Shown here piece by piece: positions 12,201 through 60,179 of a stretch of DNA of 64,000 nt. Every line of letters begins with the position of its first letter. Position 1 is the stretch's first letter. The DNA is from Verrucomicrobiia bacterium (lineage in GTDB: Bacteria > Omnitrophota > Omnitrophia > Omnitrophales > Aquincolibacteriaceae). The translations under genes and the position numbers were made by a program. The stretch covers positions 41,763 to 105,762 of the forward strand of contig DATJFP010000088.1 of the NCBI GenBank assembly GCA_035495615.1. The letters are read 5' to 3'. The notes under the pieces were generated by a model. It saw only the letters and a program-made list of their open reading frames with translations. It ran no database searches and was not told where the DNA came from.

Positions 12201-15200
12201 GTTGTAGAGGCTGCCATAGCGGCGGTCGAAAATCCGGTCCGCTTCCGAACGCATCTCTTCCTGGTCCTGCAGCCGGATATGCGCCGGCGCGTCTTCGGCG
12301 TTCGCATCCACGAACTGGTTCATGAGGCGTTCCCAGAGCGGCGCGACAAATTTCGGCGCAATGAGCGTGATCATGACCTGGAGGAAGATCGTGACGGCGT
12401 AAAGGGCGTAGAAGACTTCGGAAACGCCCGGGATCATGACGCTGATGAAGCCGATGAAGAGCAGCCGCTTCCAGATCGGCTCGCCGATGATGCCGCGCAT
12501 GACGAGGTTGTTCGGGTAGCGCGAGTATTCACTCGTGTTCCAGTGGCCGAGGAAACGCAGCGCCACGTTCGTCACGTCGAAACGTTTCCAGATGCTGACT
12601 TCGCGTTTGTGTTCGTCCGGGAAGTGCGCGGGCGTGCCTTCGGTGATCGGAACGTCGGTGAGCAGCGTGGCCGCGACCGGCAGCATGACGTTGCGCTCGG
12701 TGTCGGGCTCGGCTTCGTAGATGTTCGCGGACGATTCTTTTTCGTCGTGCGATTCCCAGATTTCCGGGTCCGCGGGATAGTCTTTCATCATTTCCGGGAT
12801 GAGGCCGTCCATGACGTCGGAACGCATGCCGAATTTACCGAACGCGCGGCCGCGTCCTTCGGTCGCGAACAGGACCACCTGGAAGAAACGCAGGGTGGCC
12901 TGGGCCACGCCCTTCAGGAAGGTGTACTGCGCGTCGCCCCAGTTCGAGTACTCGATCCACGGCTGGTACATTTTGTACTTCGCGTTGTTTTCCGAGTGCG
13001 ACATCTTCTGCACCGTGCGCAGCGCCGTATCGCGCGGCCACACGTTGTCTTTGTCCGAGATCAGGTGGTTCTTGATGCTGTTGACCGGGTCGCCGATGTT
13101 CAGCGGATTGCCGCGGTATTCGCCGTAATAGAGCTGGCCGTGGGCATTGCGGCGGAAGTAATCGCGGCCGGTCATGTCCGGCCCCGTGTCGCCGTGCGTG
13201 AGGTAGCGGTTCAGGTTGTAATACGACCACGGCTTTCTCACCTGCGACTGGCGCGGGAACACGTAGAACTTGTCTTTGCCGAAATCGCGCCACAACTCGT
13301 AGGCCAGGCGCGCCGTGCGCTGCTCGCGCGGGTCGCTGAGCGCGAGGAGGCGCGACATGTCGCCGTTGGCCGCGGCCCAGCCCGCGTCCAGGATGCGCTG
13401 GATCTGCGGCCACTGGCCGTCGGAAGTACCGCCGTCGAAAATGACGCGCATGTTGTGAAGCGGGTCCGGATCGTCCGGGTCCGCGGTGTCGAGAATGCCC
13501 TGCATGCTCTTGCGCGCGCTGTCCATCACGATATCGAGTTCGGTGATGCGCGCGACGTAGGTGATCGCGCTCTGGTCGATTTCTTTTTTGCCGACTTCAG
13601 GCAGCCCGCGCTCCATGCTGCCGAACGAGAACATCCAGGTCACGAGGCTGAAGCCCAGCGTGATGATGATGCGCAGAAGATAGAAGGTCGCGATCACGGA
13701 AAAGAGGTTGGCGCCCAGGATCAGGTAGCCGGAGAAAATGCCGCCCTTGATCAGCGTCAGCGCCGTGTCGATGACGAGCGGGTTCTGGCTGAACATGTAA
13801 CCGAACACGTACCACAGCGTGCCGAAGAGAATGCCGGAATGGAAGAGCTGCCAGAGCGTGGCCTTGCCGAACTTGCCCACGGAGGCCGGGACGTGCAGCG
13901 TGAACAGGTGCCAGCCGAAAATCGAGATCCTTCTTTCCACGTTCGGGCCCGGAAAGTCGTTGGTCCTGCCCCAGATCGACTGCGGGACCAGCAGGTCGAT
14001 GAGCGCGCCGGTAAGCGTCGGGATAAATCCCGCGGAAACCATTTCGCCCGCGAGCAGGATCGCCAGGCCATACACGATGGCGGCCAGCGGCAGGAAGGCG
14101 GGCAGCAGGAGTTGAATGATCAGGACCGCGGCGCCCGTGATGCCGATGATCGAAAATTTCGCGACCTGCGGCCGGTAATCCGCGTCGATGACCGAAAGCA
14201 GCCGGTAGGCCAGGAAGGCCGCGGACAACAGGCCTCCGAGCAGAAGGACAGCCGGCACCAGGAATTGCGCGGCGAAATAACCGATGAGGCCCAGTGTGAG
14301 CCCGGTGAGCACGCCCATGACCGTAAGGCGCTTGCCGATGTTCGCGTACGGATTATTTTTGGCGGCTTCGCGCCAGGCCACGCCCACGCGGTAGAACGGC
14401 TTGCGCAGCGTGGAAAGGCTGAAGAGCTGCATCACAAAGCGCGCGAGCACAAGCCCCAGGATGACCAGCGCATGCGTGGCCAGTGTCCCCGGCTTGTTCA
14501 GGTCGTACAGGCTGCGGAAAAAGCCCCAGACGCCCGAACGTTCTTCTTCGGGCAGGAAGCGCTGCAGGCGGCGTTCGATCTCCTGCCGGTGCGCTTTGTT
14601 GACGCTGCGCTCGGCATACGTAATGAAAAGTTCTTCGGCGTCCGAACGCATTTCCTCGCCCGGAGGCAGGTCGCCGCGGGTCTCGCGCAGCACCTGCAGG
14701 ATACCCACCCTGCGGCGCACGTCGCCGCGGATGTCCATCAGCAGCAGGAGTTCGGTCTGCGTGAGCGCGGGAATCGAGTCGGGAACCGTCGTCGGATCGG
14801 TCGCCTGCTGGAAGTAACGGCCCGGATAAAGAATGTTGATCTGGGCCTGGGCGCTCACGATGCGCAGACGCTGGTGCGCTTCCATCACGTCATCGACAAG
14901 CAGCCGGATGTCGTTGGGCAGGAGTTCGCCGCGGCGGATTCTGTCGACCAGCGCGGCCACGATGGCCGGGTCGGTCAACGAGCGGCCGCCGAGCCAGTAG
15001 CGGGCGCGGCCGAGATTCTCGGTATCCAGCCGCGAAAGCTGCTGGCTGACGATGCGCGTGAGCTGCTGGGTCACCATTTCGTTCAGTTCGCGGTCGGTCA
15101 CGTAAGGAGTCACGGGCCGCTCGGCCAGACCAATCTTCAGCCACACGTCCGCGAGATAAAGCGCGTGATCGATCGGGAATTCGTACCAGTGCATGGCGAC

Positions 15201-27200: not shown

Positions 27201-30200
27201 CGCGGCTTCGTCCGCCGCCTGCCTTTCCTTGGTCGATCGGGCCATGTACTCGAGCCCGTGCCGGATGGCTTCGATCTTGTCCGCGGCTTTGGGATGGATC
27301 GGAATTCCCTCGTCGCGGGCCGTTTCCTCGAACTCCTTGATGCCGGCCTCGATCGCGGTCTTCGCGTCCTCGATGGCCTGCAGGTGCTCGGGATAATCTT
27401 CCTCGTCGAGTTCCATGTCTTCATCTTCGATCAAGGCCTTGTGCTCGGCCAGAAGCTTGTTGTACGGCTTCACCGCTTTTTCCATCAGGATCTGTGTAAC
27501 CTCGCGCACCCGTCCTTTTTTAACTTCCGCTTCCTTTTGCTTGGCCACGCCGATGTTGCGGTGGATCTGCTCACGCGTCGTCCTGATCTCGTCGATGCGC
27601 GCGGTCAGAGGATGGTCCGGCTGCTCGAGGCGCGGCAGCTTCGCGAAGATCGTCTGCGACTCCTCGGCAAGCTCGAAAAGGGCGATCATGTTGTTGACCG
27701 CATCGGCCGCTTCGTTCACCGCGGCCCGCTCATGATCTTCGATGGGCTCCGCGGTTCCTTCCTTGTCGCCGAGCGCCCGCGCCAGGTTGTAATAAGTCTC
27801 GTAATGTTCGTAGAGGGTCGCGCGCTGGTCGGCCGCTTCCGCCGTATCCGCGAAAAGCTGCGGCATAAAACCCTGCTCGCGCAGCGCCTGCAGGTACATG
27901 GCTTCGAGGCCGGGGACCTGGGCTTCCATGGCGCGCAGATCCCGCACTTTGATGAACCACATGGCATAGAGTTCCGAAAAGAGGAAGTTCCCGCCCAGGC
28001 GGTGCGACGAAGTCTCGGCGCGCAATTCAGGGCGGGCAATGCCGCTGACCGCGCCGGGGTCGATGCTTTTGAGCTTTCCGTCGTCGTCCAGGATGAGATT
28101 GCGCCAGACGTCATCGATATCCACGATGCGTTTGTCGTTTCTCAGTTTGACGGTCGCGGCAAGAGCGCGGTGGCGGCGCACGTCCGCCTGGAAGACGGCC
28201 TGGAAAACCGCGGTCTTCTGAGCGGGTTCGATATCCCCGCTCGCGGCGACAGCCTGGAGGATGCGGGCCATGTCCGGGCCCTTGTAATCCTGTTCCACGG
28301 TAAGCTTGCCCGGTTCCTCGGAAACCTGCCGCGTCGGAACGAAGAATTCGCCCAGCACGGCCTGGTTGGCGAGACTGAGGCGCGCCTTCGTGTCGTCGAG
28401 GCTGACGGCCTCGTATTCTTTGGTCACTTTCGTCGGATGGGCTTCGTCGTCGGCGCTCAGCTTGGCGTGGAACCCGGACTTGATGCTGACCGGCAAGGTC
28501 GCTGCCACCTGACGGAGGATGGCCACGACTTCCGCGGGAAGCGGCGCGTTGTTGCCGCGCTCTTCCTTGATGGCATTGTTCAGCGCGCCTTCGATCTTAT
28601 TGAGGACGTTTTCCGCGTGCTCGAGTTTCGGCCGGTCGCCTTTCACGAGATTGGCGTAGGCAATGACGAGTTCGCGCAGGCGCCGGGCCGAGAGGTCGCG
28701 TCCCGTGCCTTCCCAGTTTGCGCGGTTTCCATCAAACCGTTCCCGCTGAGGCACGGACAAACGCGCGAGCATGCGTGCCTGCTGGCGGAGGATGTCGTCG
28801 ATGTCGAGGAAGGCCTGCAGGAATTCGTCCAGATAGGTGCGCAGCGCGGCTTCGTCTTTGGCCGCAATGACGGCCTGAACGTTGGCCAATTTGTTCCGTT
28901 CGCTCCAGACCGCGCCCGCGGCTTCCAGGCGCGACTGCAGGACATCCGGAAAGTTCTTCTTTTCGACTTCGATCTTTTTCTTTCCCGCGAGTTCCTTGAG
29001 CTCGGCCGCCATGTCGCCCAGGATTTTTTTATTTTCCGTCTTGTCCAGGTCCGCGAGGATGCCGTCGACGTCGGCCGGCGTCGCGGCCGAGGTGATGCGG
29101 TCGGTGAATTGGCGTACCAGCGCGGTGCGGGTGTCGTCCTCCTGCCGTTTCTGGTCTTCGAGAGCGCGCTGGCGGGCCTGGGCCTGCTGCACGAGGCGCT
29201 CCTCGACTTCCGCCGGAAGCTTGGCCGCCCGGATTTCTTTGAGCACGGCGGTGATGTTGTCGAGCGTCGCGCCTTCGATTTTCTTTTCCAGGTTTTTGGT
29301 CTTACGGTGGATGTTGATTTCTTCTTCCAGTTCCTGCTGGGCGCCTGTCGAAAGCGCGCTCTTGCGGACTTCGTCCAGGATGCCGTCCAGCACCGCGAGA
29401 TTGGCCACGGTCACGGCCGCGATGCGGCCGCGGAAGGACGCGATCAGCGCGTCCTCGGCCTGCAGTGTTTCGTCAGCGGCCGCGCTCAGCCCGATGCCGG
29501 TTTCTTCGGCCACTACGCCCGGAGGAGGCGTGCTCGGACGGCTCGGCGTCGGCGGAGTGACGCCTGCCGCGCGCGCGAGGTATTCATCGACGACGCTTTC
29601 CAGCGTGGCCTGCTTTCTCCAAACCCGCACAAGACCGTCCTTAATGAATTCTTTCCAGAGATCATGGCCCAGCTTGCGGCGCATGAAGTCCATGAGGACG
29701 GGCCCGTAATGATATTCCGCGGATTCCGGCGCACCCTCTTCGATTTTTCTCTTCAATTTCGTGGCGTGGAGGCTGCGCTTCTGCTCTGACAGCGCGGGGA
29801 AGGTCACGTCCAGCACGACATTGCCGGTCGCCGTTTCCCGCTGAAGGGTTTTGAGTGCCGCATAGACGAAATCGTTGGCCAGCGCTTCCGTGGCATAAAG
29901 CTGGTCCGGAGTGCGCGGGCCGGTCAGCGTGCGGTGCATTTCGTTGAAGATCGCATGGCCGACTTCCTCGATGTGGCGGACAAAGATGTCGGTCAAGCTC
30001 AGGTTCGCGATGTTGAGCGTGATGATGGTCTTCAGCGTCCCCTCTTCGCGGACCATGCGGGCACGGGCCTTCTTGTCTCCGTCATTGCTGGAACGGATGA
30101 CGATCCGGGTGATGGGAACCCGGGTCTTGGGCCCGTAATATTCGCTGCTGAAGCGCGTCAGAAAATCGTTGAGGGTGTAGAGCTTGCCCTTGTAGGGGTA

Positions 30201-33200
30201 GACTTTCGCGTACTTCACGATGAAGGCAATGAAATGCGCGCGGTATTTCGCGTTCCACGACGCGTCTTCGGGATTGTGCTTCTGGATCATCTCGACGATC
30301 TTCGCGCGCACTTCGTCCTGCTCGGCTTCGTCTTCGATGTTTTCCTGCAAGTACCGGTCGATATCGTCCTTGACCTTGTCGGGCGTCATCTTCAACACCT
30401 GGAAAAGATGGTCGGTGAGCGTCCTCACGTTCACTTTACCCCAATTGAGGCGGACGCGCGCCACATTGGCATCCGCGTCATGAATGGCCGTATCGAGATT
30501 GCCTTCGCGCAGCAGGGTCTCGGCCACGGGCTCGCTGAGAATAAGGCCCTTCTTGACCTGTCCCGATTTTCCGTTCGCCGTCAGCCGCAGCAGCTCCACC
30601 TGCATGGGCATCAAAGCGCCGGGCTTTTCCTCCGGGGCCGCCGGCAGCGTGTCTTCGGCTTCGCCCGGTTCCGGCAGGAGTTCTTCTTCGTTTTCCGTGA
30701 CCACGGCAGGCACGGCCACCGGCATTTCGGGGGTCACCGCCGCAACGGGCGCCACTTCGCCCGCTTCGCCGACGATGTCGGCCTGGGCCCGGGCCATGCG
30801 TTCCAGGCTTTCCTGCGTTTCCGTCGGGAGCCCGCTCGCGGCAACGGCGGCAAGAACGCCCGCGGCCGTGTCCGGAGTCATGTTCGTGATCTGCTGTTTG
30901 AGGTCCGCGATCGTGCTCGACATGGCCAGGGACATGCCGCCCTCGGCCTCGGACTTGGTGATGAATTCCCTTCTGGTTTCGTAAGGCCCTTCGAGTTCGC
31001 CCAGGTGCGACACGTAATCGGCGATCTGCCGGTTCACGGCCTCGCGGTCCGCCGCCTCGTACAAGCGCCCGAACTTTCTCTCGATCGCTTTCCGGCGCGC
31101 GTCGATTTGTTCGAGATGCTGCGTCAGGTCGAAATCATCGAGCGAAGCCATGGTCTGGATCTGGTCCAGCAGCGCCTGGCGGTCGAGCGCCTCGTCCAGC
31201 TCCGCGCGGAAGCCGCGGACCGTGCGCAGCACCAGTTTCTTGAAGCTCGCGTCTTTGGCGCGGCGGGCGGCAAGCGCGGCCGCGATCGGATCCTCTTCCG
31301 GCGGCGTCATGCGCAGTTCGGAGCGGCGCTGCTGGCTCTCACGCATTTCCGCCTTGAGGCCGGTAAGCTCTTCCTGCTTGGCCACATAAAGCGCGTCCAG
31401 ATGTTTGAAGCGGTTGTTGTCGGTGGCAAAGGCATTCAACCGTCCCTGGATCTGCTGGTAATGCTCGACGGTAAAGGCCTCGCCGTAATTTTCGCGCATG
31501 GAAGCGGCCGCGGTCCGGATGGACTCGAGATGCTCGGTGAAATCGAAATCGTCGATGTGCTCCATGGACGCGATCCGCGCTTCGAGGACTTCCGTATTCA
31601 AGAGTTCGTTGTCGATGCGTTCCAGGAAATAACCGACGGCGGCAGGGACCAGCGCCGCAATCTGCCGGTCGAGATCCTTGTCGAAGTCCGGCACCTGCAC
31701 CGACATGAGCGCGTCCGGAATCGACGTGTCCGTGCCTTCTTCATTAATATAGCGTTTGGCCGTGACGAGCGCTTCCAGGCGCAGCGGCACCAGGTGGCGC
31801 TGGGCGTCCGCGCCGATCTGCGGGCCGAATTCGTCGATGACAAGATTTTGAGCGGCGACAAATTGTTTGAGGCGGGCCACGGTCACGTCTTCTCCCGCGG
31901 CAAGGGGCTGTCCATAGAACCGGGCCATGATCGCCTTGGCCGGCGTGGGCTTTTTGCCGTGCGTGGCCTGGAACTGCGTCCGCAGCTGCACCAGCCCGTC
32001 CGACAATCTGCCGCGCGCCACGTCCAGGAGGCCGTTGACGCGGTTGGCTTCGATGAGCCGGTTCATGCCCGGCCCTTCGGCGAGAACTTTCCCCGCGGGA
32101 AGAACGGTTCCCACAAGCGTTTTTTGCGACGCCGCTTCTGCGATGGCGCGTTTCACGCGGCCGGCCGCCTCGCGCAAGACGCCGAGTTCCGAGAGGATTT
32201 CCTGCTGAAGGGCGCGGTAAGCTTCGTCGAGAGGTTTATAATTTTCGCGCACCGTAACGAGGCCGCTTTCGTCCTGGGCCGCGTAGGGGTGGTCCGCTGC
32301 GAGTCCTTCGAAGAACTTTTCGAGGACCCGGTCGACTTCCGTGGGATCGTCGGTTTTCGAGGGAAGGTCGTTGAGATTCCGGATCCGGCTCTGAATGCGG
32401 GTCAGCGCGCTATGCAGGTGGCCTTTTTTATCGGGCTGCGATTTGATCCGGGCCAGATTGCCGGCAAGCAGTTCTTCCATCGCCGCTTCCTGGTCCGGAT
32501 GCGTGCGCAGGAAATCCACGATTCCCTTGTTCCCGATAATGTCGGTGAGCCGCGACAGTTCCGCCTCGACGGTGCCGTGCATGTCGCCCTGGACCTGCGC
32601 CAGCATCCCGCTCACTTCAGGCCTGAGGGTTTTCGCGGTTCCGTCCAGCGAGGCCTGCAGCGCGATCTCGTCGAGCCTGGCCGGGGTCATGTCCTGGAGC
32701 GCCTCGTTGTCCATGTGCAGCGCGGTCAATTCCGCCACCACTTTTTTCGAGATCAGAACATGATAAAGGTCGCGGATGTCGGCCGGCATGTCGTCAAAGC
32801 CCTTGCCGCTGGTCGAGGCCCGCATGGCCGCGGCCTTCAGGGCGTCGCCGGTCGTCTCTTCCAGCTTTTTCCCGGTCGCGTCGCCCTGGATGTCTTTCAG
32901 GTACTGGCGGACATTGTCCGCGATGGCATTGCGTTTTTGGGGTGCGAGGACCGTGACCACCTGGGTTTTCAAGTCCGCGGGCACGTTCTTGAGCAGGAGG
33001 AGCATGCGCTCGACCGTGACCACGGCATTTTTCTTCTCGCTGATGTTTTTCATCCAGCTCTGGACTGCGGCGGTCGTGGCCTTGAAAATCGCCGCGGCTT
33101 CATCGGCTTTGAGGGTGAGCTCCTGGCGCAGCGCGTCCGCGCTCTTGATCTTGCCTTCGGCCGTCGGATAATCGCGTCCCGGCTGGGCCTTGGCTTGATC

Positions 33201-36200
33201 GAGAAGCGAGAGCACTTCCTGGATTTTGGCCAGCCGGATATCCTCTTCCGTCGGGGCCGCGGCCGATGGAGGCGCCACTTTTCCGGGCGTCTGCAGTCCC
33301 ACGAAAGAAACGTCATCGTCGTCGGCAAAAGGATTCGCGCGTTCCAGCCTCTTTTCCAACCCGTCTCCGGGGATCGAGGAGGCGTCCCGCGCGGCCTTGG
33401 CCAGCGCGTGCACGGTCTGATCCAAAGGCAGGGTGCGCGTCATCTCAACCAGTTCTTCCATGCCCGGGATCGGCATCACGCGGCCCACGACCGAGATCGT
33501 GGCCAGCGGCTTGCCGGGTTTGTTGGCGAGTGTCGTCGTCCGTATCGTGCTCAAACCGGCAGGCGTGCTCTTGTCGCCGCCGTCGGAATAAACCAGCGCC
33601 CGCGTTCCGGGAGGCACGTCCACCTGGGTGCGGTTGTTGCTGCCCAGCAGAAGAGCATCTCCGGAAAGGAATTCGTCGTGCTTGTGGCGGACGCCCAGAT
33701 AAAGCTCCAGGTTCTCCTGCGTTGTGAAGCGCGGAAGCGTCTCGCCGAAATCTTTGGCCTCCACCTTGCCGTCCGGGAGAATGAAAATGCCGGTGCTGTC
33801 GCCGTAATCGAGACCCAAGCCCGCGTATTTTTTCTTATCCGGATCGGCAATCTGCCGTGTTTCCGGGTATTCCCAGACAAGACGGATCGTGAGGGTGGTC
33901 ATGGCCCGCGAATGAATCTGCCGGGCCCGTTTGGCCTCGGACAAAGCTTCATTGGCCGCATCGACCGCGTCCTCGAGGACTTTCAAGGCGGCCTCGGGCG
34001 TTTGCGCCGCGAGCAGCTTTTCCCGGGTGGCTTCCTTCTCGATGGCGGCGATCACGATAAGCGCGGCCTGCCGCCCGTCCGGCTGCCCTCCGGCACCGTC
34101 CGCCACCGCGATGAGGCCCCGGTCCGGCAGGTTGAGAATGGCGTCTTCGTTGTTCTGGTCCGCCAGCGGTTTATTGATGCGGTACACTGCGGGAGCCGTG
34201 TAAGCCCAGGTCGTAAAACCCGTAGCCTTGCCTTCGATAGCTCTCTTTTTCGCGTCAAAATCATCTCTTACCCAAGGCCTGATCCGCTCCGGAAGCGCTT
34301 CGATCTGGCCTTCGACCGCCGCCAACTCCCCCGCGCTTGAATTCAGCGTCAGCGCGTCGACTGCCGCCCGCACCGGCATGTAACGGCGCCGGTCTTCCTG
34401 GATGCGCTGGGTAATCTGCAGCTTCTTGGCATCGGCCGCGCGGCCGATCTCGTCTTCGAAGCGCTGATAAACGCGCGGCGTGGTTTCTTCTTTGGCGCTC
34501 TCGACGTTTTCGTCGACGATGGCGATGCTGAGGATGTTGATGTCCGCCTTCTGCAAGTCCTGGATAAATTGCCGGAGCCGCTGCTCATCCCTCTTATCCT
34601 TGGCCGCGATCTTTTCTTTCTTGGCCCGTATGGCTTCCTGGACGTCGGCACGCTGCCGCAGCCGCGCATCCGTCAAAATCTTGGCCGCTTCCCCTTCGAC
34701 ATCGGCTTCCGCGACGGTTCTGGGGTCCAGGGCTGTGATCTTGCTAATGGCTTCGAACGCCGCCTCCTCATCCGCGGCAACCCGCGTCCGGATGGCCTCG
34801 TTCTTTTCGGCGAGCCGGGCCTGTTGCAGCCGGGCCGCGGCGTCCTGCGCGCCGTTCAGCCGGTTTTCCAGCGGTGTGACGTCCGAAAACGCATTGAGTG
34901 GGGTCAGCGCATCGACTTTGGGCGTAATGTCCGCTACGATCAGGCCCACGACTTCCCCGATTTCCCGCTTCAAAGCCGCCTGCAGTTCCGTGTCTTCCTT
35001 AATCTGGTCCGCGCGGCTGAGCAGCGCTTCGGCATCCGAAACCTGCGCCGCGGCAACATTCTTGCGGAGGTCTCCCAGGAGCCTGCGTACGTCCGCCGCG
35101 ATGTCGTTGTTCGAGCGCGAACGATCCCCGATCGACTGCCGAGCGGCTTCGAATTCTTCTTTGAGCGATTCTTTGAGATCTTCCCGGTCCGCGACACGCG
35201 CTTCCTGAGCCTGCACGTCCGATTCGTTTTTGACCCGGCGGAGCTGGATCTTGATATCCGCCATCAGGTCGCGGTCGAGGCTCTCGCGCTGCGTGATGGC
35301 CTCTTCCTTGGCTTCCACCTCGCGCAAAAGACGCGCCGCCCGTTCGCCCCGGGCGCCGGTCACGCGCGCCCGCAAGCCCTGCGCGGCGGTAAGGTCGCTG
35401 CGGTCAGTGAGCTGCGCGATCTGCGGTTCGATCGCATCCATGATCTTTTCCGCGGCCGCGTCGATCTCGCCTTTCACCTTGTCTCTCAGTACGGCGCCCG
35501 CGATCTGATCCGCCTGGTCGGCAAGGTCCTGCATGGTGCGGACATAAACGCCGTCGATCGCGGCCGTTTCCGTAATTCTCAGGCGCACCGCGGCGGCGGC
35601 CGTGTCATCGGCCTGGATGCGGCGCTGGATCGCGCCGCTGATGTCATTGGCTTTTTGCGCGAGGCGGTTGGCGCGCTCGGTCTTCGCATTGACGAAACGG
35701 CGGCGCTGCGCCTCGACTTCCTCTTCGGTGCTGAGTTCGCCGAGCCGGTCGAGAGACTCGTCGATGTGAGCGGCGACAAGCACCATTTTGCGTTCGATGA
35801 GCGCCTCGAGAGGGCCGCGCATTTTCGCGTTCTTCAAGCCGGCCAGTTTTTCCGTGACGGCTTCGACGTCCTGCAGCGCGGCCGTTTCCGTGTCAAGGCC
35901 CTGAAGCGCCCCGCGCACGTCCTGGTCGATCGCGCCGTCCTGCCGGATCCGTTCCTGGATCGCGGTTCTTTTCTGCGTGGCAAGATCAAACAGCTCGGGA
36001 ACCGATTCCGCTTCCTGCATCCGCGCTTCCTGCGCGGCAACGTCCTTTTCTTCGTTCAATTCCGTGAGCGCTTCCAGTTTTCCCCGGATGTCGGCCGCTA
36101 CAAGCCCGCGCGACTGCTCGATCGCGGCAACAGTCCTGTCGCGAATGGCCACGGTCACGATTCCCTGCGCCCGGGCTTTCGCGGTCTCAAACGGCTTCAC

Positions 36201-39200
36201 CGTTGCCGTGGCCGGCGTTTTGGGAAGGCCGCCGAGGATTTCCCGCGCGGTTTCTTCGTCGCGGCGTCCGCGGTCGCGGATGCGCGTCTTGATGTCGGCG
36301 GCGAAACCTCCGATGCGCTGACGCTGCCGTTCTTCGGGCAGCCGCGCCACGGCCGCATCGACGTCCGCTTCCGTGCTCTGTTCGTTGGCGGCGAGCGCGT
36401 TCATGGCCGCCTGCGCGTCCCGGATCAGTCTCGAATCTTCTTCTTCACGTTCCCGCAGGAAATCGCGGCGCGCCAAAGCCGCTTGCCGCAATCCTTCAAC
36501 TTCGGGCGATTTGGCGTTCTTCAGCCGGTCTTCCTGGGCGCGGATGTCGTTGACGTCTTCCGCGGCGGCGATTCGTTCCCGGATGTTCTGCACCACGGCA
36601 ACGCGCTTGGCCTCGATCTGCGGCCTCGCTCCTGTTTTCAAATCCTCATAAGGTACGGCTTCTGCCCGCTCGGCATAAGATTCGATGACTCCGAGCGGCA
36701 CGCCGTCTACGCCAAAGCCCGTCACGTCGCCGACCAGCCGTTCCATTGTTCGCTGGTAGTAATCGTAAATCTGGGCTTCCATCTGAGTCCGCTTGGCCTC
36801 GAGCCGCGGGAACACGAAAAGAAGGAGCGCGTGAAGGCTGGGGGTCGATTCGGTTTGAGCCAGGAGGTTCTTTTTCGCGCGCGCGTAGGCGGTTTGTTCC
36901 GCCGCGGCTCCGGCCTCCTGGTATTCTTTCAGCGCGCGGACGAATTCGTAGGAACTCTTCTGGTCCAGGGGCGGCATTTCCGTGGAAGTCAGCATGGCCG
37001 CGGCTTCGGGCACGATCTGGTCCGGCTTGTCGAGCTGTGCCGCCATGGCCGAGATGAGCCGCGATTCGTACTCGGCGAGGGCGGCTTCAGTCGTGCTGAG
37101 GCGGGCGCCGATGCGCGATTGAAGTTCCGAGACAAGAGGCGCGGGACTGTCGGCCGTTCCGGCAAGCGCCGCGGCTTCCTGGCCCAGGCCCTGGAGGCTC
37201 TGGTAATTTTCGTGCGGATCGCCGCGGGTCTGCTCGAGACGCTGGGCAATGTCGCGGAACTTGATCGTGTTATCGACCTGCGGCGTACGAACTTCGCCGG
37301 GCAGCACTTCGAAAAAGGCAATGACCGCCAGGATGGCGTCGAAATTCGCGGCCACATCCCCCATGTGGGGCTGCAGCGCGCCTTGCAGGAGGGTTTGTCC
37401 GCGCGCGGCAATGATGCCCGGAATCTGGGGCCTGTCCGCTTCGGAGGCCGCGCCGCGCTGCGCGTACGTGTCTACCAGGATCTGCGGGCTCATGGCCTGC
37501 GCCGTCGTGGTCTGGATCAGTTGAAACGCCCGGGCCAGCTTCAGGACGTTCAGGGCGTCGTTATTTTCAGGAGAAAATTTCGTGGTGTCCCACGTGATGG
37601 CGGCCAGACGCTCGAAGGAGTCCGCGCGGTTGATTTGCTTGGCCAGCCGGCCGAAGCGGGATTTTTCCGTGCCGCGCCATTTGATCACTCCCCAAATGGC
37701 TCCGGCTCCGGCCGCGAGACCCGCTGCGATTAAAGCGGGCCCGGTAAGATTGGGCGCGTTGACCGTGACGCCTCCTGCTTGTTCCGCCAAATACTGATAA
37801 AGTTCGTAAACGCCGTAAACCGCCACGCCGGCGCCGGTGAGAACTCCCAGGCCGAGCAGAATGCGGTTTCTCCAGACGCGGGCCGTCTCTTCCCGTCTTT
37901 CCAGTTCGGTCTTTCTCGCGCGCGCGCCGTCCTGCTCCGCCGCGGGCAGATCATTGATCACAGCTTCGGTAATATCGGCCGACCGCCGGGCTGCTGCGAC
38001 GGCTGCGCGCGCATCCTCGATCTTCTTGAGAGCGTCGCGCTTTTCCCGGGCCTGGTCCCGCTCGCCGTCGTTTTCGAGATCCGCGAGCACCGCGTCGGTA
38101 ATCTGCGCCGACTGCGTGGCCGTGGCGACCGTACTTCTCGCGGCTGCAAGGCGCGCCGCCTGGATCGCCGTCCTCTTGCCTTCCGCGACTCCGGCGAGCC
38201 TCGCCGCTTCCGTCGTCTGAGCTCCTTCCAGACGCGCCGTCTGCGCGGCCACCTCTTCGATCGTGCTGGCGTCGGTCAATGCCGTCAACTTGCCTTCGAT
38301 GTCCGCCACGATTTGCGTGACTTTGCCGCGGATTTCATCTTCCACCGCCCCGCGAGCGGCCCCGTCTTTGATGCCGGCCGCCAGAGGCAGAAGAGCTTCG
38401 GCGTCGCTTATTTTCGCGGCAGCGGCATCGATCTGTCCGAGCTGTGTCCGGATATCGCGCGCTTTATCCTCGTCACCCCGCAGCCGGTCGCGAATCTGTT
38501 CCACGGCGGCATCCGCCTGGTCTTTCACCTGGATGCGGAGACGTTCCTCCAGACCGTTCACAATGGCGGCGAGCTGATCTTCCGTGGCCGTTTCCAAATC
38601 CAGGGCTCCGATCGCGCGCTTGGCCTCAGCGACCGCGCGGCCGTCCGCTTCGATTCTCGCCTCGATGGCTGCGCGTTTGGCTTCCGCCAATTCCCGCAGC
38701 CGCGCTGCTTCGGGAGTCTTGGCATCTTCGAGGCGTGCGGTCTGCGTCACCACCGATTCGGGAGTGTTGAGTTCGGTGAGGGCATTCAATTTGCTTTCGA
38801 TGTCGGCGACGATCTGCCCGACTTTGCCGTTGATCTGGCTTTCGACACTGCCGCGAAGCGTCGCGTTCTGGATCTGCGCGGCGCGCGTCAGCAGGGCTTC
38901 CGCGTTTTCGATCGTGGCGCTTTCAGGCTGAACCTGCCCGAGATCCGAAAGGATGGCGCCGGCTTTTTCGTTGTCGCTGCGGCCGCGCTCGCGGATCGCG
39001 GCAATCTTGGCATCCGCTTCGTCGCGCACATGATCACGCAGGCGGGCCGGCAGCCCGCTGCGAATGGCTTCAACGGCGTCTTCCGCCGCCGTGTTCACAT
39101 CAATGTCGTCGATCTGGCGCTTGGCTTCGACTATAGCCCGGGCATCGGCCCCGAGCCTGTCGCTGATCGCCTGTTTTTTCTGTCCCGCCAGATCGCGCAG

Positions 39201-42200
39201 GCGTCCGGCATCGGCAGCGGCGGCGCCTTCGAGCCGCGCAGCCTGGGCATCCGGGTCAGCCAGCGCATTCAGTTCCGTCATGGCGTTCAACTTGCCTTCG
39301 ATGTCCGCGACAATCGCGGTAACGCGGGCGTTGATTTCGCCCTCGATCGCGCTCCTCAAGGTTTCTCCCTTGATCTGTTTCGCCCGCGGCAACAAGGCTT
39401 CGGCGGCGTGCACGTTGGCATCGCCCGGAAGGAGGGCCGCAAGATCGCCGCGGATCGCTACTGCTTTTTCATCGTCGCTTCTCAAACGTTCGCGGATGGC
39501 CGAGAGCGCCGCCGCGACATCTTCCGCAATCTGGTCACGCACGCGTTCGGGCACGCGCGTCTCGATGGCTTGGACCTGGGCAGGCGTCGCGGTTTCGGGA
39601 TCGAGCTGGCCGAGGTCCTGTTTGGCCGCCGTGACGGCTTCGCGGTCCGCGGCGATGCGCCTCGTGATGGCGTCCATCTTGCCGCGCGCCAGATCGCGAA
39701 GGCCTGCGGCTTCCGAGGTAAGCGCGTCTTCGAGGCGCTGGACCTGCGTGTCGACTTCGGCCGCCGCGCTCAACTCGGTCAAGGCTTCCAGTTTTCCGCG
39801 GATGTTTTGGACGATCCCGCCCACTTTCGCGTTGATTTCATCCCGCACGGTTTCTCTCAGAGCGGGGTTCTTGATGTCCGCGGTCTCCGTCAAAAGGGCT
39901 TCGGCTTCTTTGACAGCGGCCGTTTCAACCGGCAGCAGTCCAAGCCGCTCACGAATGCTTTGCGCTTTTTGTCCGTCGGTTTCGATGCGCTGGCGGATCG
40001 CAAGCAGGGCCGCCTGCGCTTCGGTGCTCACCTGGCCGCGCAGACGTTCAGCAAGACCGTTCACGACGGCTTCGACATCGGTGGCCGCGGCTTCATTTAT
40101 ATTAAGGCTCGTGATCGCCTGCTTCGCCTGGCTTACGGCGAGCTCGTCCGCCCGGATCCTTCTCTCGATGGCGGCCGATTTTTCTTCCGCAAGCGTGCGC
40201 AGCCGGCCCGCTTCGGACGTGGCCGCGTCTTCCAGCCTCGGCGTAATCGCCGTCACGCTGGCGGGCTCGTTCTGGTCCGTCACGGCATTCAATTTCCCTT
40301 CGATGTCCGCAACGATCGCTTTGACTTTCTGATTGATCTCGCCTTCGACCGCGGAGCGCAGCGTTCCGTCTTTGATCTGCCCGGCGCGGGTCAGCAGCGC
40401 TTCCGCGTCTTTGATCGCCGCCGTATTGGCAATCGCTCCGAGGTCACCCCGGATGGCCGCCGCCTTTTCGGTATCGCCCTGCGTGCGTTCGCGAATCGTG
40501 GCGGCCGCGGCATCCGCTTCGGCCTTGACCTGATCACGCACCCGTTCGGGCACGCGATTGCGAAGGGCTTCTACGTCGTCCACCGCGGCCGTGTCCAGAT
40601 TGAGCGCCGCGATCGCCTGCTTGGCTTCGCGCACGGCGCGTTCGTCCGCGTCGATCCGGTTTTGAATGGCCCTGGATTTCTGCTCCGCCAACTCCCGCAG
40701 CCGGGCCGCTTCCGGCGTCACCGCGCCTTCAAGCCGCGACGTCTGGGCCGTCACTTCTTGGGCCGTGCTGAGTTCCGTCAAGGGCGTCAGCTTCGTTTCG
40801 ATGTCCGCGGCGATCTGGCCGGTCTTGGCATTGATCTCGCCTTCCACGGCCGGACGCAGCACCGCATCTTTGATCTGCGCCGCGCGGGGAAGCAGCGCTT
40901 CCGAATCCGTGAGCTTGGCCGTCGCGGCGGCGATACCCTGCAGGTCCGAACGAATCGCCGCGGCTTTTTCTCCGTCGCCCCGCGTGCGGTCGCGGATCGT
41001 GGCAATGGCCGCGTCCGCTTCGGTCTTCACCTGCTCGCGCACCCGCTGGGGCACCCCATTGCGGAGGGCTTCCACTTCGTCCACCGTGGCCGTGTCCAGA
41101 TTGAGCGCCGCGATCGCCTGCCTGGCGCCGCTCACTGCGAGCGTGTCGGATTCGCCGCGGCCGGAGATGGCCTGAGACTTTTGGCCTGCCAGCTCCCGCA
41201 GCCGGGCCGCTTCCGGCGTCACCGCGCCTTCGAGCCGCGCCGTCTGGGCCGTCACCTGGTCGGCCGTGCTTTCGTCCGTCAAGGCGTTCAACTTTCCTTC
41301 GATGTCCGCGACGATCCGCGTCACGACCGCGTTGATTTCGCCTTCCACGGTCGTCCGCGCGGTCTGGTCCTGAATCTTTGCGGCGCGCTCGAGCAGCGCT
41401 TCCGCGTCTTTGATGTTCGCGGCCGCCGGCACGATCCGTCCGAGATCCGCGGCAAGGGGCCCGCGAAGCGCCGTGTCTTCTTCGCCCCGCTTTAAGTCAT
41501 CCCGCCGCCGTTGAGCCCCTGCCAAAATCACGTCGTAGGCGCTTCTTTCATCCCCGGCGAACGTCACCCCCGTCACAAGCCGTTCCGCTTCATCAAGTTT
41601 CTGCTGCGCCTCGGCCGCTGTGTCCGCAGCCTGGGCTGCGGCAAGCAATCCGACCAGCGAAACAACATTGCCTCGGCGCGTTACCTGCTCTTGTTCGGCT
41701 CGCTTCAAGTCGCGCTGCTTTACGCGCAGGGCTTCGAGGGCTTCGGTATAACGGGCTTCTTCCTGGCCGGCAAATGTGACCTGGCTGCGCAGTGCCGTGA
41801 CGGTCGCGATCGTGGCTTCCGCCTGCGTCGACGAGGTCGGCTCCACGGCCAAAAGAGCCATCAGGTGCCGGACTTTTCCCGAACGTTCGGCTTCCGCATC
41901 TTCGTCCGTCTTGAGACGCTGCGCGGCTTCGCGTGCAAGCCCGAGCGCATCGGTGTACTGCCGCTGTTCATTCCCCTGAAATTGGACGCGGCCTGCAAGG
42001 TCTTCGGCTTCTCGGATCATTTCCTCGGCTTCGGATGCCGTTGCGGCGCGCTGCGCGCCTGTCAGCAGGCTCTGGATGCGGCGCACCGAGGCTTCGCGGT
42101 CCGCGACAAGTGCCCGATGCTCGGCGATGAGTCCGGCCAGCGCGCGCGTGCGAGTGCTTTCAGCGGCGCCTTCCAGCCTTTTTTCCTGGAGGTCGAGGAC

Positions 42201-45200
42201 GCCTGTGTCATAAGTGCTCGTGACCTGGGTCCGGATATTGGATTCGATGGCAAGCGCGGTTTGTTCGACTTCCCCTTCGAGCGTCGTGCGCAGGCCTTGA
42301 TTGCGGACGCGCGCCACGTCCTTCAGCACGGCTTCCGCTTCCGCCAGCGTGGCCGTCGCCGCTTTCACATTCAAATTCGCGAGCGCGTCACGTACGGTCC
42401 TGGCCAGGGTTTCTTCCTGCGCCACGGCTTCCTGGATGGCTTTCTTTTTCTGTCCCGCCAGCGCCTGGAGCCACGGCTGGGCCGCGGGATTGAAACGCCT
42501 TTCCTGCGCCTCGACCGCGCTGACGGCCGCGGTTTCGTCCATCGCGGTCAGCGTTTCCTGGATGTTGTCAATGAGGCTGCCGATCACGCGGCCGACTTCG
42601 CCCTGCCACGCCTGACGCACGCCTTTGTTCTGGATCTGATTGACCCGCTGATAAAGCATTTCCGCGTCGCTGATCTGGGCAGTCGTAAGGTCGAGGCCCT
42701 CGATCGCTTCCATCACGCCTACGGCAATCTCATCGTCTTTGCGGATCCTGTCGCGGATGGCCTGGCGCACGGTCTCGGCTTCTGCGGCAATGCGCGTCTG
42801 GAGAGGTTCCCGCAAAGTCGCGGCCACGGCGTTCACGTCTTCTTCCTTCGCGGTCTTCGGATCGATCTTGCTCAGTTTCCCCAGAACGTCCTGCACGCTC
42901 GCCGCGTCTTCAGTTTCCTGCAGGGCCATGAGATCCAGCACTTCCACGACCTGTTTGTCCCCGCGCACGGCGTCTTGGAGCCGCAGCGGAAGCGCAGTGA
43001 TCGCGGCTTCCACGTCCTGGGAGGCCGCTTGCCCGATCACCATGCTCGTGATGGCGGCGATCGTCTGCGTTTTCATCGCTTCGTCTTTCTGCTCACGGGC
43101 CGTGATCGCGCGGGTCATCTCCTCCACCTTGCTGCTCAGCCTTTTGAGGACGTCTTCCGGAAGGCGGAGGGCCATATCTTCGGGAAGACGGAACATGACG
43201 GCGTTGACCTGAGGCACGGTAGAGGTCTCGACCGGAAGAGCGCCGATCTCGGCAACCAATCCGTCGATAAAGGCGGAGTCGCTCGCCGCCTGGAAACGAT
43301 CATGGACCGCCTTGACGCCGGCCGTGAGATCCGTGCGCAGATTTCCGCGGTAGCCGCGGGTCCGTTCGCTCTGAGCGGCAAGCTCGTCTTCATTTTTGAC
43401 TCCGGCCAGACGCTCGACGACGTTCTGCGCCACCTTCTCCTGCTGCGCGGCCGCGGCCTGTTCGATCTGGTCCCGGTAAGCGCGGCCAGGCGCAAATCCC
43501 AGCAGCCGCAGCCCCTGTTGGACAAAAGCCGAGACGTCGCGCACCGACACCTCGCGCGCGTCGATTTCCCCGATTTGCCGGACAAGGTCTTCCACGGCAC
43601 TATCCATTCTCTGCCGGCTCCGCTGTTCGCGGCTTTCGGCAAGGTCACGCTGTCTTTTCTGTTCACGGGCCTGACGCGCCTGGTCGACCGGCACGGCTTC
43701 GAGTTGTTCGACCGCGGTTTCGCGGGCCTGTTCTTCCGGCTGTGGCACGGGCTTGGGCTGTTCTTCGGCCACTTCGGCCGCGGGAACTGACTGGACCACG
43801 AGCGAATACAGATGCGCAATGTCTTTGTATTCCTGGAGGACGAGCTTGATGACTTCCGTACGCGTCTGCACGGCCATCTCGAAAAGCGCCTGCTTTCTGC
43901 CTTGCGCGGTTTCATCCGCATCGGTCGTCGACTGCTGTTTCAGCGCCTCGAAAAGCGCGCGGATGAGCGCCGGGAGCTGGGCGAGTTTTTCCTGGACGGC
44001 CAGAAGCTGGCGCGCGGTCTGTTCGCTGGACAATTCTTCTTCGCTGGCAAGGCGTAAGGTTTCCAGGGTGTCGCGAAGGCTGTGGAGTCCCTGCACGAAG
44101 TTCGCGCCGTCCTGATAGCCTTCGCTCAGCTTCGAATAAATATCGCGGTAGGCCACACCGATGGCCTGGACCGCGTTGTCTTGGGCCGCCCGCAATTTCT
44201 CATCCAGGCTTCCGAGCGCTTCATCGAGCTGCTGGATGCGTTCGGTGAAACGCACGCGCAGCGCCTCGGCCCGGGTCTGGATTTCAGTGCCTTCATAATA
44301 AGATTCCCGTGACAAGGCAGCCAGCTGCTCCATGACCACGTCCCGAAGCCGCCACAGGGTGTACTGTTCGTTTTCGATGACCCCGGCCGCTTCACGCACC
44401 AGCGGGAATTGCCCCGCGGGCTGCTGCAGCTGGGCCTCAAGCTCTGATATATAGGAAGCGGTGTGCCCGAGCTCCTGGTCCGTTTCGCGTTCGATTGTGT
44501 TCAAACGGCGCGTCAGCACGCCCATGTTATATTCCGCGATTTGCCGGATCTTCTCGTCCGCGGCGGCGCGGACGCGGTCTTTGAGATTCGCGGGTAGGAG
44601 ATCGACCAGCCGGTTGACTTCCGCGGGCGTGCCGACCGGAACCGAGACTTTCGTCTCGATGGCGGCCGTGACTTTTTGCACCTGCAGGTCGTCGAGCTTG
44701 CCCAGGGAAGCGGCGCCGCGCGCAATAACCGCGGCAAGCGCCTGCCTTCTGGATTTCAAAAATTCAATTTCGCTTCGCACGCCGGGATCCACGGCGTCCG
44801 GATTTTTTCCGAAGGCATCTACCTTCGCGTCGAACTGCGCGAGCGTCCTATCCGCTTCCTCCCGGATTTTCCCGATCTGGAGCCGGATCGTGTCGAAGAT
44901 GCTAGTCGTTTCTTCGGTGAGGTTCGGGACGTTCATGAGGCTTTCGGCGACTTCGAGGCTGCGGATCAGCCTCGTCTCTTCCGTTTCGTAGAAAGCGCGG
45001 GCTGCGGTGACTTCGCCCTTCAAGGCCAAAACGCGTTTTTCCGTGAGTTGGATTTTACGCGTCAGTTCCCGGATCCCGGCCTGGGCGTCTTCGGTCACCC
45101 TCTTCAGGGAATCGTCGAGCTCGCGGAGAAGGTCTTCGGGTTCTTCCGTCGTCCTCAATTCCGCGCGCAGGCCGACAGCAAGCTGGGGCATCTGGCGGGC

Positions 45201-48200
45201 ATTCCCATTCAAGCTTGCGAGAAGCTGGCTGCGTCCTTCGCTTCCGAGACCCGCAAAATAGGCATCGGGCCGGCCGAGCAGTTCGCCGATCAGGGCCAGG
45301 ATTTTTCGGACCGCTCCCGCCGACGGAGTCTGCTTGAGTCCCGCCAGCGTCTGTCCCGCTTCCGCGATCGCTTTCTTGGCATCGACCGCCGCGGGCTGCT
45401 GCACGGGTTGGCGGGCCCGCTCGAGCGCACGCGCGATGCCGGGAAGATCGCGGATTTCAGGAGGCAGGGCTTCGAGAGTCTTGGCAATTTCGGCGACTGG
45501 TTCCGGGACCATCTCCGGATCGAGCTCGGGCGTCAGCGAAACATCGAGGGCATGCTGGATATTATTGTAGAGCAGATTCCCTTCTGTCCCCGTGGCCTTG
45601 TCTTCGTAAGAGAGCTTCTTAATAATGTAGTCGCGCAGGTCCGCCATTGCGAGAGCGATCGTGCCGGCCTGAATCTGGCGCGCGGCAAACAGAATCGCGT
45701 GATGGTCATACGTAATGCCCGTCGTATCCGAAACCTTGGGCATGTTCGCGGCGCGGTCTTCTTTCCAAAGGTCCTCATTGCTCATGGCCGCTTCCGGGAA
45801 GGCCTTGTTATGCTGGCGCAGCGATGCTTCCTCAAGCAAATCCAGGACGGCGTTCCGCTGCTGGCCGCCGAGCGCGTTCCAAGCCGCTTCGTCCGACCGG
45901 CGGATCAATTCGATCTGGTCGCGCAGCGCCTGCTGCAACTGCCCGGCCGCCTCTTCCCGCTGGATTTGGGAAGTCCACGCCTGCGGCAATTTATCGAGGA
46001 TCCAACGCTGTACCTGGACCGAATAATCCGTGACTTTCTTTTCCGTGGCCGTGCGCGGAACGGTGAGGCTCATCGGGTCTCCCGGCTGGACTTGCAGCCG
46101 GTCCAGATGCATCAGGAAATGAATGAGCGCGTTCTTTTCCTGCTTCGTCCACGACGTAAGCTCGGAGTTCCACCGCTGAAGCCCCATGAACCGGTTTCTC
46201 GAGAGATCGTAGCGGCGCTTTTCGATTTCCGGACGCGGGCGCTCCACAGCGCCTTCCTGGAACCGCAATTCGCCTTTCAACGCGGCCTGGCCGAGGTCGG
46301 TAACGACGACGCTGATCTGGCCGGGCTGCACCTTGCCGAGCGCTTCCGTGACGGCCGGATCCCTGACCAAGTGCGCATCCACGGGCCCGGAATAATAGTT
46401 GCTGTCGCCGAGCTCCAGCCGGTTCAAACGGTCGGGCTGTTTGAAAAGCCCGCGGGCTTCCGAATCCTGGCTGCGAAGCACCTTCGCAAAAAGGCGCAGC
46501 GCCTGTGTCTTGTCTTCGCCCGTCTGCCACAAAAACTGGTTCGGACCTTTCCGCTCCAGCACGCCGCCGAAACGGTTGACGATCGCGAGGAGACCCTGCT
46601 GGTATTCCGCAGGAATTTCCGCGGCGATTTTCTTACGCATTTCCTCGAGCGCCTGCTCAGGAGTATTGCTTTCGAAGATGCTTTCGACGATCGTCAGGGT
46701 CATGAGGAAAAAGGCGTGCGCGTATTCAGGATCGCGGGCGATGAAATCGGCGGCTTCCTGGCGGAGACCCAGGCTCGCCGCATTCAGAAATTCGCGCGCC
46801 TTGGGCGATTTTTCGATGACCATGTGCCAGGCCGCGAGCTGGAAGCGCGGGTCGCTCAGGCTTTGCTGCTGGGGCGGGAGGAAAGTCTCCACCAGCCGCG
46901 TTTCGAGCGGCATCGGCTTCTGGCTGAGGGCGTCCACGTAAAGCTGCGTTTCCTTGGTGTCGTCGATCTGGCCGTGGATCCGCGGCGCGATCACAAGGAA
47001 AGAATAATCGTTTTCCTTGAGATAGGCCTCGATGCCGGGCGTATGGAAACCACCGGTAATGATCGCCATGATCTGCTGCTTCCCGGATTCCATTTCCCCG
47101 ACCGCTCTCTCGATCAGGATCTTGTCGCGTTTGAGAGCTGCGGAATAATAACGCTCCACGCGGCCAAGATCCTGATCAAGGATCTCCAAAAGGGACGGCA
47201 ATCCATTGGAGAACTGATGTTGCTTTAAGAGCGGTACGAGGAAATTACGGAATGTCTCTGCCTTGAATTCGTCGCGGTATGTGTAGAAAAAGTCTGCGTC
47301 CTGCTTGGTCAGGGTGAAATTGAACATCTTCTGGTAAATCTCGAAAATGCGGAACAGCCGGTCCAGCTGCACTTCCTCTTCGTTGCGGAACAGCTTGTTC
47401 TTGATGTCCCGCTCGAGCGCCTCGATCTCGCTGAAGATCGCGACGTCGATCGAATCGTAGAGCCTCATATATTTAAGGTAGCGCAGGACCTCGTCGTACT
47501 TCTGGGCCAGCTCTTCCTGCCCGGCCCCCTGCGTCGACTGCATGTTCTGGATTTCGACCTGGAGATAGCCGTAATAGTCCGCGCGCTTCATCTTCTTCAT
47601 GCGGAACTGGACCGTGTTGGTCAGAAACTCGGAGAGTTTTTCACGCGTGAGGACGTTTTTCAGGTCGTTGATCAGGTCTTCGATGCTTTTTTCGGCTTTG
47701 TCGAAATCGATTTCTTTTTCGAGATCGATGAGCGAGAGAAGCGAGTGCATGCCCGGATAATCGTAAAGGGCGATGTTTTCTTTGCGGGCCGTTTCCACGA
47801 GATGGCGGACGTAACTCACGAGTTCGTTGCCGCCGGACTGGAAGGCCTGCCGGTAATGCAGCATGTCCCGCAGATCATCGGAGAAAACGAACCGGGAAAC
47901 ATCGTCCATCAGCTTTCCGAGGTCCGCCAGAACTTTTTCGTCTCGGTCTTTGTATTGCAGGGCGTCGAGATAAGCGCGCCTGTTTTCTTCATAGATCTGG
48001 CGGTCTTCCACGCCGTACAGGTTCAGTTCCGGCCGGTCGACGATCGCGAGGTATTCGGGCCCCGTCAAACGGGCTTCTTTCAAAAAGTAATCCGCGACAT
48101 TTTTGCGGGCTTCTTTGTTCGGAAAAAACGAAAAGAGTTCGGTGAAGAGTTCGCCCTCGGCGCCTTCCAGGTTGATCAGTTTAAGACCGTAATTTTTGGC

Positions 48201-48530: not shown

Positions 48531-48778
48531 GAGGATTTGCCGTCCCTATGTTTTGCTGGCCAAATTGACGTGCTAACTTACCGACTACTTAAAAAATTGA
48601 TTTATATTGTTATATTTAAACTATATATCAAAGTTTTTAAACTCACAATAGTATAGACCGAAATAATTGTAAGTTAAATACTTGATAAAAGTTTTTATGA
48701 AGTAAGTATAGCCGCCACTTTCTAAATTGTCAATCGGAACTTTAGGCAGAAAGGGAGTTTAGCCTGGTTTTAAGGAAA

Positions 48779-48800
48779 GCCCCTACAATAAGGGGTTTAT
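48779..48800 (-). terminator. Weak hairpin immediately after the response-regulator stop codon; possible terminator or attenuator before the giant gene
   Basis: cccct-acaata-agggg (48780-48795) forms a 5-bp GC stem with a 6-nt loop. The minus-strand RNA is then followed by CUUUCCUU. The stem is short and the U-tract imperfect. Confidence 0.2.
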
Positions 48801-60178: not shown

Positions 60179-60179
60179 A

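Follow-up and report, generated by a model that had tools for sequence, protein, structure and literature searches.

A PP2C-like module within a giant gene

We analysed a stretch of 64,000 nucleotides (hereafter the window) of an Omnitrophota assembly (GCA_035495615.1, contig DATJFP010000088.1, forward-strand positions 41,763 to 105,762). A six-frame scan shows that the minus strand of the window holds one stop-free frame of 16,181 codons, from position 3 to position 48545. With the start codon placed at the ATG at 48530, this giant open reading frame (ORF) has no in-frame stop and remains open at the left end of the window. The subject of this study is a module within the giant protein that resembles the PPM/PP2C family of phosphatases (Table 1). 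It lies directly after the final copy of the second of two arrays of a 167-residue repeat, and a Pro/Ala-rich linker (QTPGKVAPPSAAAPTE) flanks it on the C-terminal side.

An earlier note on this DNA had placed a PP2C-type phosphatase-like module at positions 33500-34200, about 4,800 residues into the giant protein, on the basis of three signature motifs: AVADGAGG, YGDSTG and VYSDGGD. All three are indeed present at the places given, in that order and on the minus strand, and AVADGAGG starts at residue 4813 of the single 16,181-codon frame. The interval contains the three motifs and is too narrow for the module, which extends from 33276 to 34193 and includes a further motif, DDVS, outside it. 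Conservation of the motifs was assessed in a global MAFFT alignment of the query with 33 PP2C hits (A1), and a second alignment contained PP2Cs only (A2). When the query is compared with the sequences of the PDB by phmmer, NNED pairs with the NED of PppA and PstP, and AVADGAGG aligns with their DGMGG. The C-terminal half carries two insertions, one of about 34 residues after SDG and one of about 17 residues before the last motif. A search for NED..DG[AMVIL]GG..GDS..SDG, in this order, found a single instance in the actual sequence, and 2,000 residue shuffles of all 16,181 amino acids produced none.

Table 1. Features of the giant gene and its surroundings. Positions are those of the window, residues those of the giant protein.
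Feature	Residues	Positions	Strand	Basis
Giant ORF	at least 16,176 amino acids	3..48530	-	six-frame scan and translation; 0 Cys codons
PP2C/PPM-like module	~4785-5090	33276..34193	-	PF13672, Stp1_PP2C, phmmer, hhalign, AlphaFold2 (AF2) and Foldseek
Motif 1, NNED, in 'LADQNNEDA'	4798-4801 (N4799-E4800-D4801)	34143..34151	-	N30 and D32 invariant in A1
Motif 2, AVADGAGG	4813-4820	34086..34109	-	D47 and G48 invariant in A1
TTLT strand, equivalent to conserved MGTT	4883-4886	33888..33899	-	T115 nearly invariant in A1
YGDSTG, equivalent to VGDSR	4914-4919	33789..33806	-	G146 and D147 invariant in A1; hhalign passes through
VYSDGGD, equivalent to LCSDGL	4985-4991	33573..33593	-	D219 and G220 at least 90% conserved in A1; hhalign
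DDVS, then FVGL (to 5084), equivalent to DN[IV][TS] and the final beta-strand	5077-5080	33306..33317	-	D308 column at least 90% conserved in A1
Two 167-residue repeat arrays	1700-3550 and 3976-4774	34224..43448	-	self-BLAST, jackhmmer
Marginal Gly/Ala-rich hydrophobic hairpin, between the arrays	3562-3621	37683-37862	-	hydrophobicity scans
About 15 predicted transmembrane (TM) helices, in two clusters	11359-11635 and 12044-12760	10266..14471	-	Kyte-Doolittle, Hessa scale
Weak ARMT1-like damage-control phosphatase match	14262-14372	5430-5762	-	PF01937, E = 0.003, 17.1 bits, below the 25-bit cut-off
Cytidylate-kinase-like P-loop start	16089-16125	171..281	-	PF02224, 36.3 bits (cut-off 26)
Putative Sec-type signal peptide or signal anchor (MIDWQTRRAKPWLRTVALLVALIFIVHDVVWA then DGGG)		48435..48530	-	Kyte-Doolittle peak at residues 17-35
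Conserved N-terminal domain	~650-730 residues long	46356..48530	-	48-64% identity to L001, L003, L005, L013, L019 and L081
Hybrid response-regulator/PAS/HisKA/HATPase histidine kinase, directly upstream of the giant gene		49240-50802	-
tRNA-Ala(CGC), upstream of the giant gene		51327-51402	-

Homology and predicted fold of the module

The match to a PPM profile expected from the motifs was found. PF13672 (PP2C_2) is the sole Pfam match of the 401-residue stretch searched (27.4 bits for a cut-off of 24, E = 2.9e-6), it persists when the search is made with a 4,000-residue piece of the giant protein, and it spans only positions 9-100 of the 209 of the profile. The same stretch matches the NCBIfam model NF033484 (Stp1_PP2C, Stp1/IreP) with E = 1.4e-8 and 34.5 bits, which is below the equivalog cut-off of 230. 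Among the sequences of the PDB, phmmer gave weak matches to PppA and PstP over 45 residues of the N-terminal half. When 1.84 billion representative proteins were searched exhaustively with phmmer, 53 matches were returned at E ≤ 1e-3 (best 45 bits), and 52 of these were counted as PP2C. All 53 span query residues ~28-120, and nearly all of the proteins are 240-330 residues long. Nine out of ten sampled matches were proteins with PF13672, PF00481 or PF07228, and one SPRY-repeat protein (P0004) was a false positive. The profile built from A1, which includes the query and is dominated by the hits, retrieves tPphA, PppA, PstP and Stp1 from the PDB with E-values of 1e-61 to 1e-78. In summary, these sequence comparisons show beyond reasonable doubt that the N-terminal half of the module, i.e., the first beta-sheet and helices with NED, DGxGG and TT, shares its ancestry with the PP2C Ser/Thr phosphatases of bacteria.

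The C-terminal half was assessed in several ways, and the tests confined to it are statistically clean because the homologues had been picked on the similarity of the N-terminal half only. When the query is aligned by hhalign to the PP2C-only profile, the probability is 99% (E = 2.3e-18, query residues 23-221) and the path takes in NED, DGxGG, TT, GDS and SDG. A hidden Markov model (HMM) of the C-terminal half of PP2Cs gives that of the query 4.1 bits, and 4 of 5,000 shuffles score at least as high. When hhalign is given the C-terminal half alone, it places the strand 'PPGTRALVYSDGG' at the correct template columns (P = 0.005), with a probability of 7%. The first AF2 model, produced from a 34-sequence alignment, has a predicted template modelling score (pTM) of 0.76 and a predicted local distance difference test score (pLDDT) of 85-97 in the core, 81-86 in the strands of the C-terminal half and about 86 in the DDVS region. 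Its best Foldseek matches are PstP (4e-11) and tPphA and PppA (up to 6e-10), with TM-scores on the target of 0.69-0.78 (0.72-0.78 for tPphA and PppA). In our reading, the C-terminal half would be the genuine but strongly diverged second half of a PP2C domain in which the flap region has been replaced.

Putative active site and favoured interpretation

The query keeps the family residue at the A1 columns D32, D47, G48, G146, D147, D219, G220 and D308, which are D4801, D4816, G4817, G4915, D4916, D4988, G4989 and D5077 of the giant protein. All five acidic metal-ligand positions are thus Asp after alignment to the 33 PP2Cs, as the earlier note had anticipated for the catalytic residues. In the structures of tPphA, PstP and PP2C-alpha, the residue equivalent to D4801 binds metal and water, that of D4816 bridges the metals and that of G4817 contributes its backbone; D4916 falls at the position of the third-metal ligand, and D4988 and D5077 at those of metal ligands. 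Metal binding and hydrolytic chemistry are plausible for such a set of residues.

On balance, we think it probable that residues ~4785-5090 form a diverged PPM/PP2C metal-dependent phosphoesterase domain with altered substrate binding. Such a domain would fold as the usual alpha-beta-beta-alpha sandwich and would bind two or three Mn2+ or Mg2+ ions, and a metal-bridged water could then attack a protein substrate at phospho-Ser/Thr or at a similar phosphoester. The binding of phosphate and substrate would probably be unlike that in Stp1, PstP and tPphA.

Several observations weigh against this interpretation. Some concern the active site. The phosphate-binding Arg of G-x-x-R-x-x-N-E-D, at least 90% conserved in A2, is an Asp in the query (D4796), and the Arg of GDSR is a Thr. 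These two replacements, together with the two insertions and a flap region that is not conserved, including its DH motif, are the reasons to propose that phosphate and substrate binding are altered. Other observations concern the extent of the similarity. The significant sequence matches of Pfam, NCBIfam and phmmer are confined to the N-terminal half, and neither PF00481 nor PF07228 (SpoIIE) matched the 401-residue stretch, even at E ≤ 10. D5077 is aligned by global MAFFT only, across the 17-residue insertion; the local HMM and Pfam alignments end at the TTLT strand, and no local alignment extends to D5077. We also made a control AF2 model in which the homologues were cut short and query residues 125-325 thus stood alone in the alignment. 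In this model, the C-terminal half is unfolded (pLDDT 25-50, pTM 0.44), and the Foldseek matches to tPphA and PppA are limited to 98 N-terminal columns (rmsd, the root-mean-square deviation, of 2.7 Å for tPphA). The full-domain fold of the first model thus depends on the PP2C alignment, because the C-terminal half stays unfolded when homologues do not cover it. Finally, the module has no orthologue or close homologue in any of the collections searched with which to detect purifying selection on its catalytic residues, and neither a kinase nor another partner for it was detected in the giant protein or in the flank. The module had been described as apparently intact. This applies to the acidic ligands; it does not apply to the lost Arg, GDST, the insertions and the restriction of significant matches to one half, nor to the other half, which the control model left unfolded.

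The rest of the giant protein

The 167-residue repeat was found by self-BLAST and jackhmmer in 20 copies that are 30-65% identical and rich in Ala, Glu, Arg and Thr. They occur between residues 1283 and 5923, with outlying copies at 1283-1339 and 5820-5923, and sum to 2,609 residues. The giant protein is therefore not mostly repetitive, as had been thought: this family accounts for ~16% of it, and essentially no internal repeats were found beyond residue ~5950 within the window. Scans of the whole sequence against Pfam, NCBIfam and the PDB retrieved only PP2C_2, the start of a cytidylate kinase and the sub-threshold ARMT1-like match. The cytidylate-kinase-like piece also matches PDB entry 1q3t (E = 3.4e-4), is cut by the end of the window, and is by its sequence a putative second enzyme-like module of the giant protein. 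Its presence agrees in spirit with the earlier suggestion that the protein is more than structural.

Around 20 TM candidates were identified overall. Apart from the two clusters, which suggest an integral-membrane core, there are single strong predicted helices at residue 7127 and at ~8946-9015. The TM-rich region has no homologues in the collections searched and no Pfam family.

The giant protein is rich in Ala, Leu, Arg and Glu and lacks Cys entirely: there are 0 in the 16,181 residues of the ORF, where ~90 would be expected. Cys makes up 0.57% (23 of 4,040 residues) of twelve flanking proteins and 0-0.3% of the partial orthologues of the giant protein at other Omnitrophota loci. This looks like strong avoidance, as in proteins that are exported unfolded. 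The giant gene (positions 1-48545) also differs from the flanking genes (48546-64000) in GC content (0.62-0.67 vs 0.50-0.55) and in GC content at third codon positions (GC3, 0.73-0.86 vs 0.60-0.74), a contrast that could reflect amino-acid or codon bias, or a foreign origin.

A chain of ORFs of up to 1,886 amino acids (e.g., 29934..34340) runs along the plus strand in a single frame between positions 165 and 48653. Their translations are Arg/Gly/His-rich junk. They are antisense shadows of the high-GC3 giant gene, and an ORF caller could mis-annotate them.

Genomic neighbourhood and relatives

The genes that flank the giant gene on its strand are ordinary bacterial ones and encode the hybrid histidine kinase, an S33 hydrolase, an adenosine monophosphate (AMP) ligase, a patatin/cyclic-nucleotide (cNMP) protein and YajQ, and further SPOR proteins, a GNAT protein and a GH1 protein. 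The best matches of the AMP-ligase, at 48-61% identity, are in metagenome-assembled genomes of Candidatus Omnitrophota. The same neighbourhood recurs at five of these AMP-ligase loci and on one JGI contig, in each case with a homologue of the first 650-730 residues of the giant protein next in line. A database search with this N-terminal part returned 44 proteins, many of them named Omnitrophica or Omnitrophota. Judging by these homologues of the flanking gene and of the N-terminal domain, the host probably belongs to Omnitrophota. In L081, the N-terminal domain is a separate ORF of 691 residues, also beside the kinase and hydrolase genes, and the complete genome CP070780.1 has a family member of ~1,000 residues. 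Homologues of the giant protein are limited to its N-terminal domain: past residue ~730, the relatives at L001, L003, L005, L013, L019, L081 and L082 share nothing detectable with it. The body of the giant protein looks either lineage-specific or hypervariable.

Signal peptide and cellular compartment

The N-termini of the members of the N-terminal-domain family have n, h and c regions and AxA-like cleavage sites, and in this they resemble cleavable Sec signal peptides. Kyte-Doolittle and Hessa-scale scans predict no strong membrane helix before residue 7127. Upstream of the module there are thus either no TM helices or the two of the marginal hairpin, which has copies of the 167-residue repeat on both sides. 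With none or two helices in between, the module would be on the exported side, like the N-terminus. The absence of Cys fits an exported protein. Two points weigh against export. Both flanks of the hairpin are rich in Lys and Arg (5 and 6 residues) and would, under the positive-inside rule, lie in the cytoplasm, and classical PP2Cs are cytoplasmic. Judging from the sequence, the chances that the module resides outside the cytoplasm are roughly even.

If exported, the PP2C-like domain might be a surface effector of an ultra-small predatory or episymbiotic Omnitrophota cell and remove phosphate or other modifications from the proteins of prey or host, with no part in the cell's own signalling. 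The loss of the Arg and the two insertions would then reflect a new substrate. We regard this scenario as unlikely, if worth keeping in mind. The published giants of Omnitrophota pose the same puzzle, since predictions place enzyme domains of theirs outside the cell (West-Roberts et al. 2023, bioRxiv 10.1101/2023.11.21.568195; Nielsen & Lui 2026).

Alternative explanations

The motifs might have come together by chance, without any homology to PP2C, given that each is short and that 16,181 amino acids offer many openings for short motifs. The shuffles, the PF13672 score above its threshold, the 52 PP2C matches and the hhalign probability of 99% refute this explanation, to which we give almost no credence. 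The other two accept the homology and differ in what has become of the enzyme. The module could have the PP2C fold and an intact metal site and yet catalyse a non-canonical reaction or act on a non-canonical substrate. Like SidD, it might cleave off AMP or other modifications attached through a phosphodiester, or it might hydrolyse a phosphoester other than that of a protein, perhaps as an effector exported against prey or host. The replacements of the phosphate-binding Arg by Asp and of GDSR by GDST, the unconserved flap and the large insertions all speak in favour of this, as does the presence of the deAMPylase SidD among the Foldseek matches (1e-8). The signal peptide, together with a sequence free of Cys and, up to residue 7127, of strong TM helices, suggests an extracytoplasmic site, where the classical phospho-Ser and phospho-Thr signalling substrates are not expected. 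However, the top matches in both sequence and fold are classical bacterial Ser/Thr phosphatases, the matches to SidD are weaker, and the sequence shows no likeness specific to SidD. We therefore hold a non-canonical enzyme to be improbable, although well within consideration.

We find it slightly less probable still that the module is a degenerate, inactive PP2C remnant, i.e., a pseudophosphatase left with only a structural or binding role, within a giant protein that evolves fast. The similarity of the C-terminal half is almost nil by the HMM and by hhalign on that half alone, this half does not fold unless the PP2C alignment is provided, and the phosphate-binding Arg is lost. Furthermore, not even the closest syntenic relatives have a homologue of the body of the giant protein, a sign of very rapid divergence. 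Against this, the five acidic ligand positions and the adjacent Gly residues are kept in order, which would be unexpected in a drifting pseudoenzyme, and the frame stays open along all 48.5 kb. Metal ligands are missing from known PP2C pseudophosphatases such as TAB1, which also counts against a remnant. A diverged phosphoesterase with altered substrate binding remains the interpretation that we favour.

Significance and comparison with known systems

PP2C domains are very common, their fusions to membrane or sensor regions are commonplace and phosphatase domains of giant proteins have been recorded, so this module extends what is known rather than changing it. Bacterial proteins of more than 10,000 residues are almost entirely unannotated, and the function of those of Omnitrophota is debated, with predation, attachment and extracellular metabolism among the proposals. 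In this otherwise 'dark' protein, the PP2C module is one of very few recognisable enzyme modules, and, as a catalytic piece of 300 residues that can be expressed alone, it is one of the few experimentally tractable handles on the giant protein. If it is active and extracytoplasmic, it would support the view of the giants as effectors and add to the short list of secreted enzymes with a PP2C fold. If it is cytoplasmic, it would suggest that a huge membrane machine regulates itself through Ser/Thr phosphorylation.

The closest known systems, in both sequence and fold, are tPphA (2J82/2J86), PstP (1TXO/2CM1), PppA (6JKV) and Stp1 (2PK0, 5F1M). The module has the same order of motifs (NED, DGxGG, TT, GDS, SDG, D-x-[IV]-[ST]), keeps the acidic positions, and has the bacterial-type DG[M/A]GG instead of the eukaryotic DGHGG. 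It differs from bacterial PP2Cs in its low identity (~20-29%), in the changes from Arg to Asp and from GDSR to GDST, in the unconserved DH of the flap and in the two insertions. It is also part of a protein of more than 16,000 residues, whereas the bacterial PP2C enzyme is a free-standing protein of 240 residues. The module is not an orthologue of the Stp1/PstP type, because its score is far from the equivalog cut-off (34.5 vs 230 bits) and the Arg is missing.

In membrane-anchored PP2Cs, such as PstP of Mycobacterium and SpoIIE of Bacillus, the catalytic domain is covalently joined to membrane-spanning and large non-catalytic regions. Their PP2C domain lies in the cytoplasm, within a small and conserved architecture, whereas the module described here stands behind a putative signal peptide with no strong TM helix in between. 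SidD, the deAMPylase effector of Legionella pneumophila (6RRE, 4IIP), also combines a PP2C fold, as predicted for the module, with large insertions, and is delivered outside the producing cell. Its TM-score on the target is only 0.35-0.43, below that of the classical phosphatases, and it has no specific sequence likeness to the module.

The giant protein itself has the attributes of the Omnitrophota giants: more than 10,000 residues, a predicted signal peptide and TM helices, and syntenic homologues named Omnitrophota. Within the window, it is unlike the Archaeovorin and dockerin types, which are defined by SecA_DEAD, dockerin, C39 and S8 domains: residues 1-16,181 gave no Pfam match at E ≤ 0.01 to SecA_DEAD or SecA preprotein-binding, dockerin or TSP3, or C39 or S8 peptidase domains. 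A signal-transduction module of domains has been described among 916 long proteins (Nielsen & Lui 2026), and Ser/Thr phosphatases are listed among the domains of giant (>10,000 residues) proteins of Omnitrophota and Actinobacteria (West-Roberts et al. 2023, bioRxiv 10.1101/2023.11.21.568195). It was thus an overstatement to call a phosphatase in such a protein unusual. Like those giants, the one studied here has many TM helices and a highly diverged enzyme domain and is otherwise poorly annotated, with the phosphatases being compared by description only. On most of the tests made, we class the module as a very diverged further member of the PPM/PP2C superfamily, in a group of giant proteins for which phosphatase domains are already on record.

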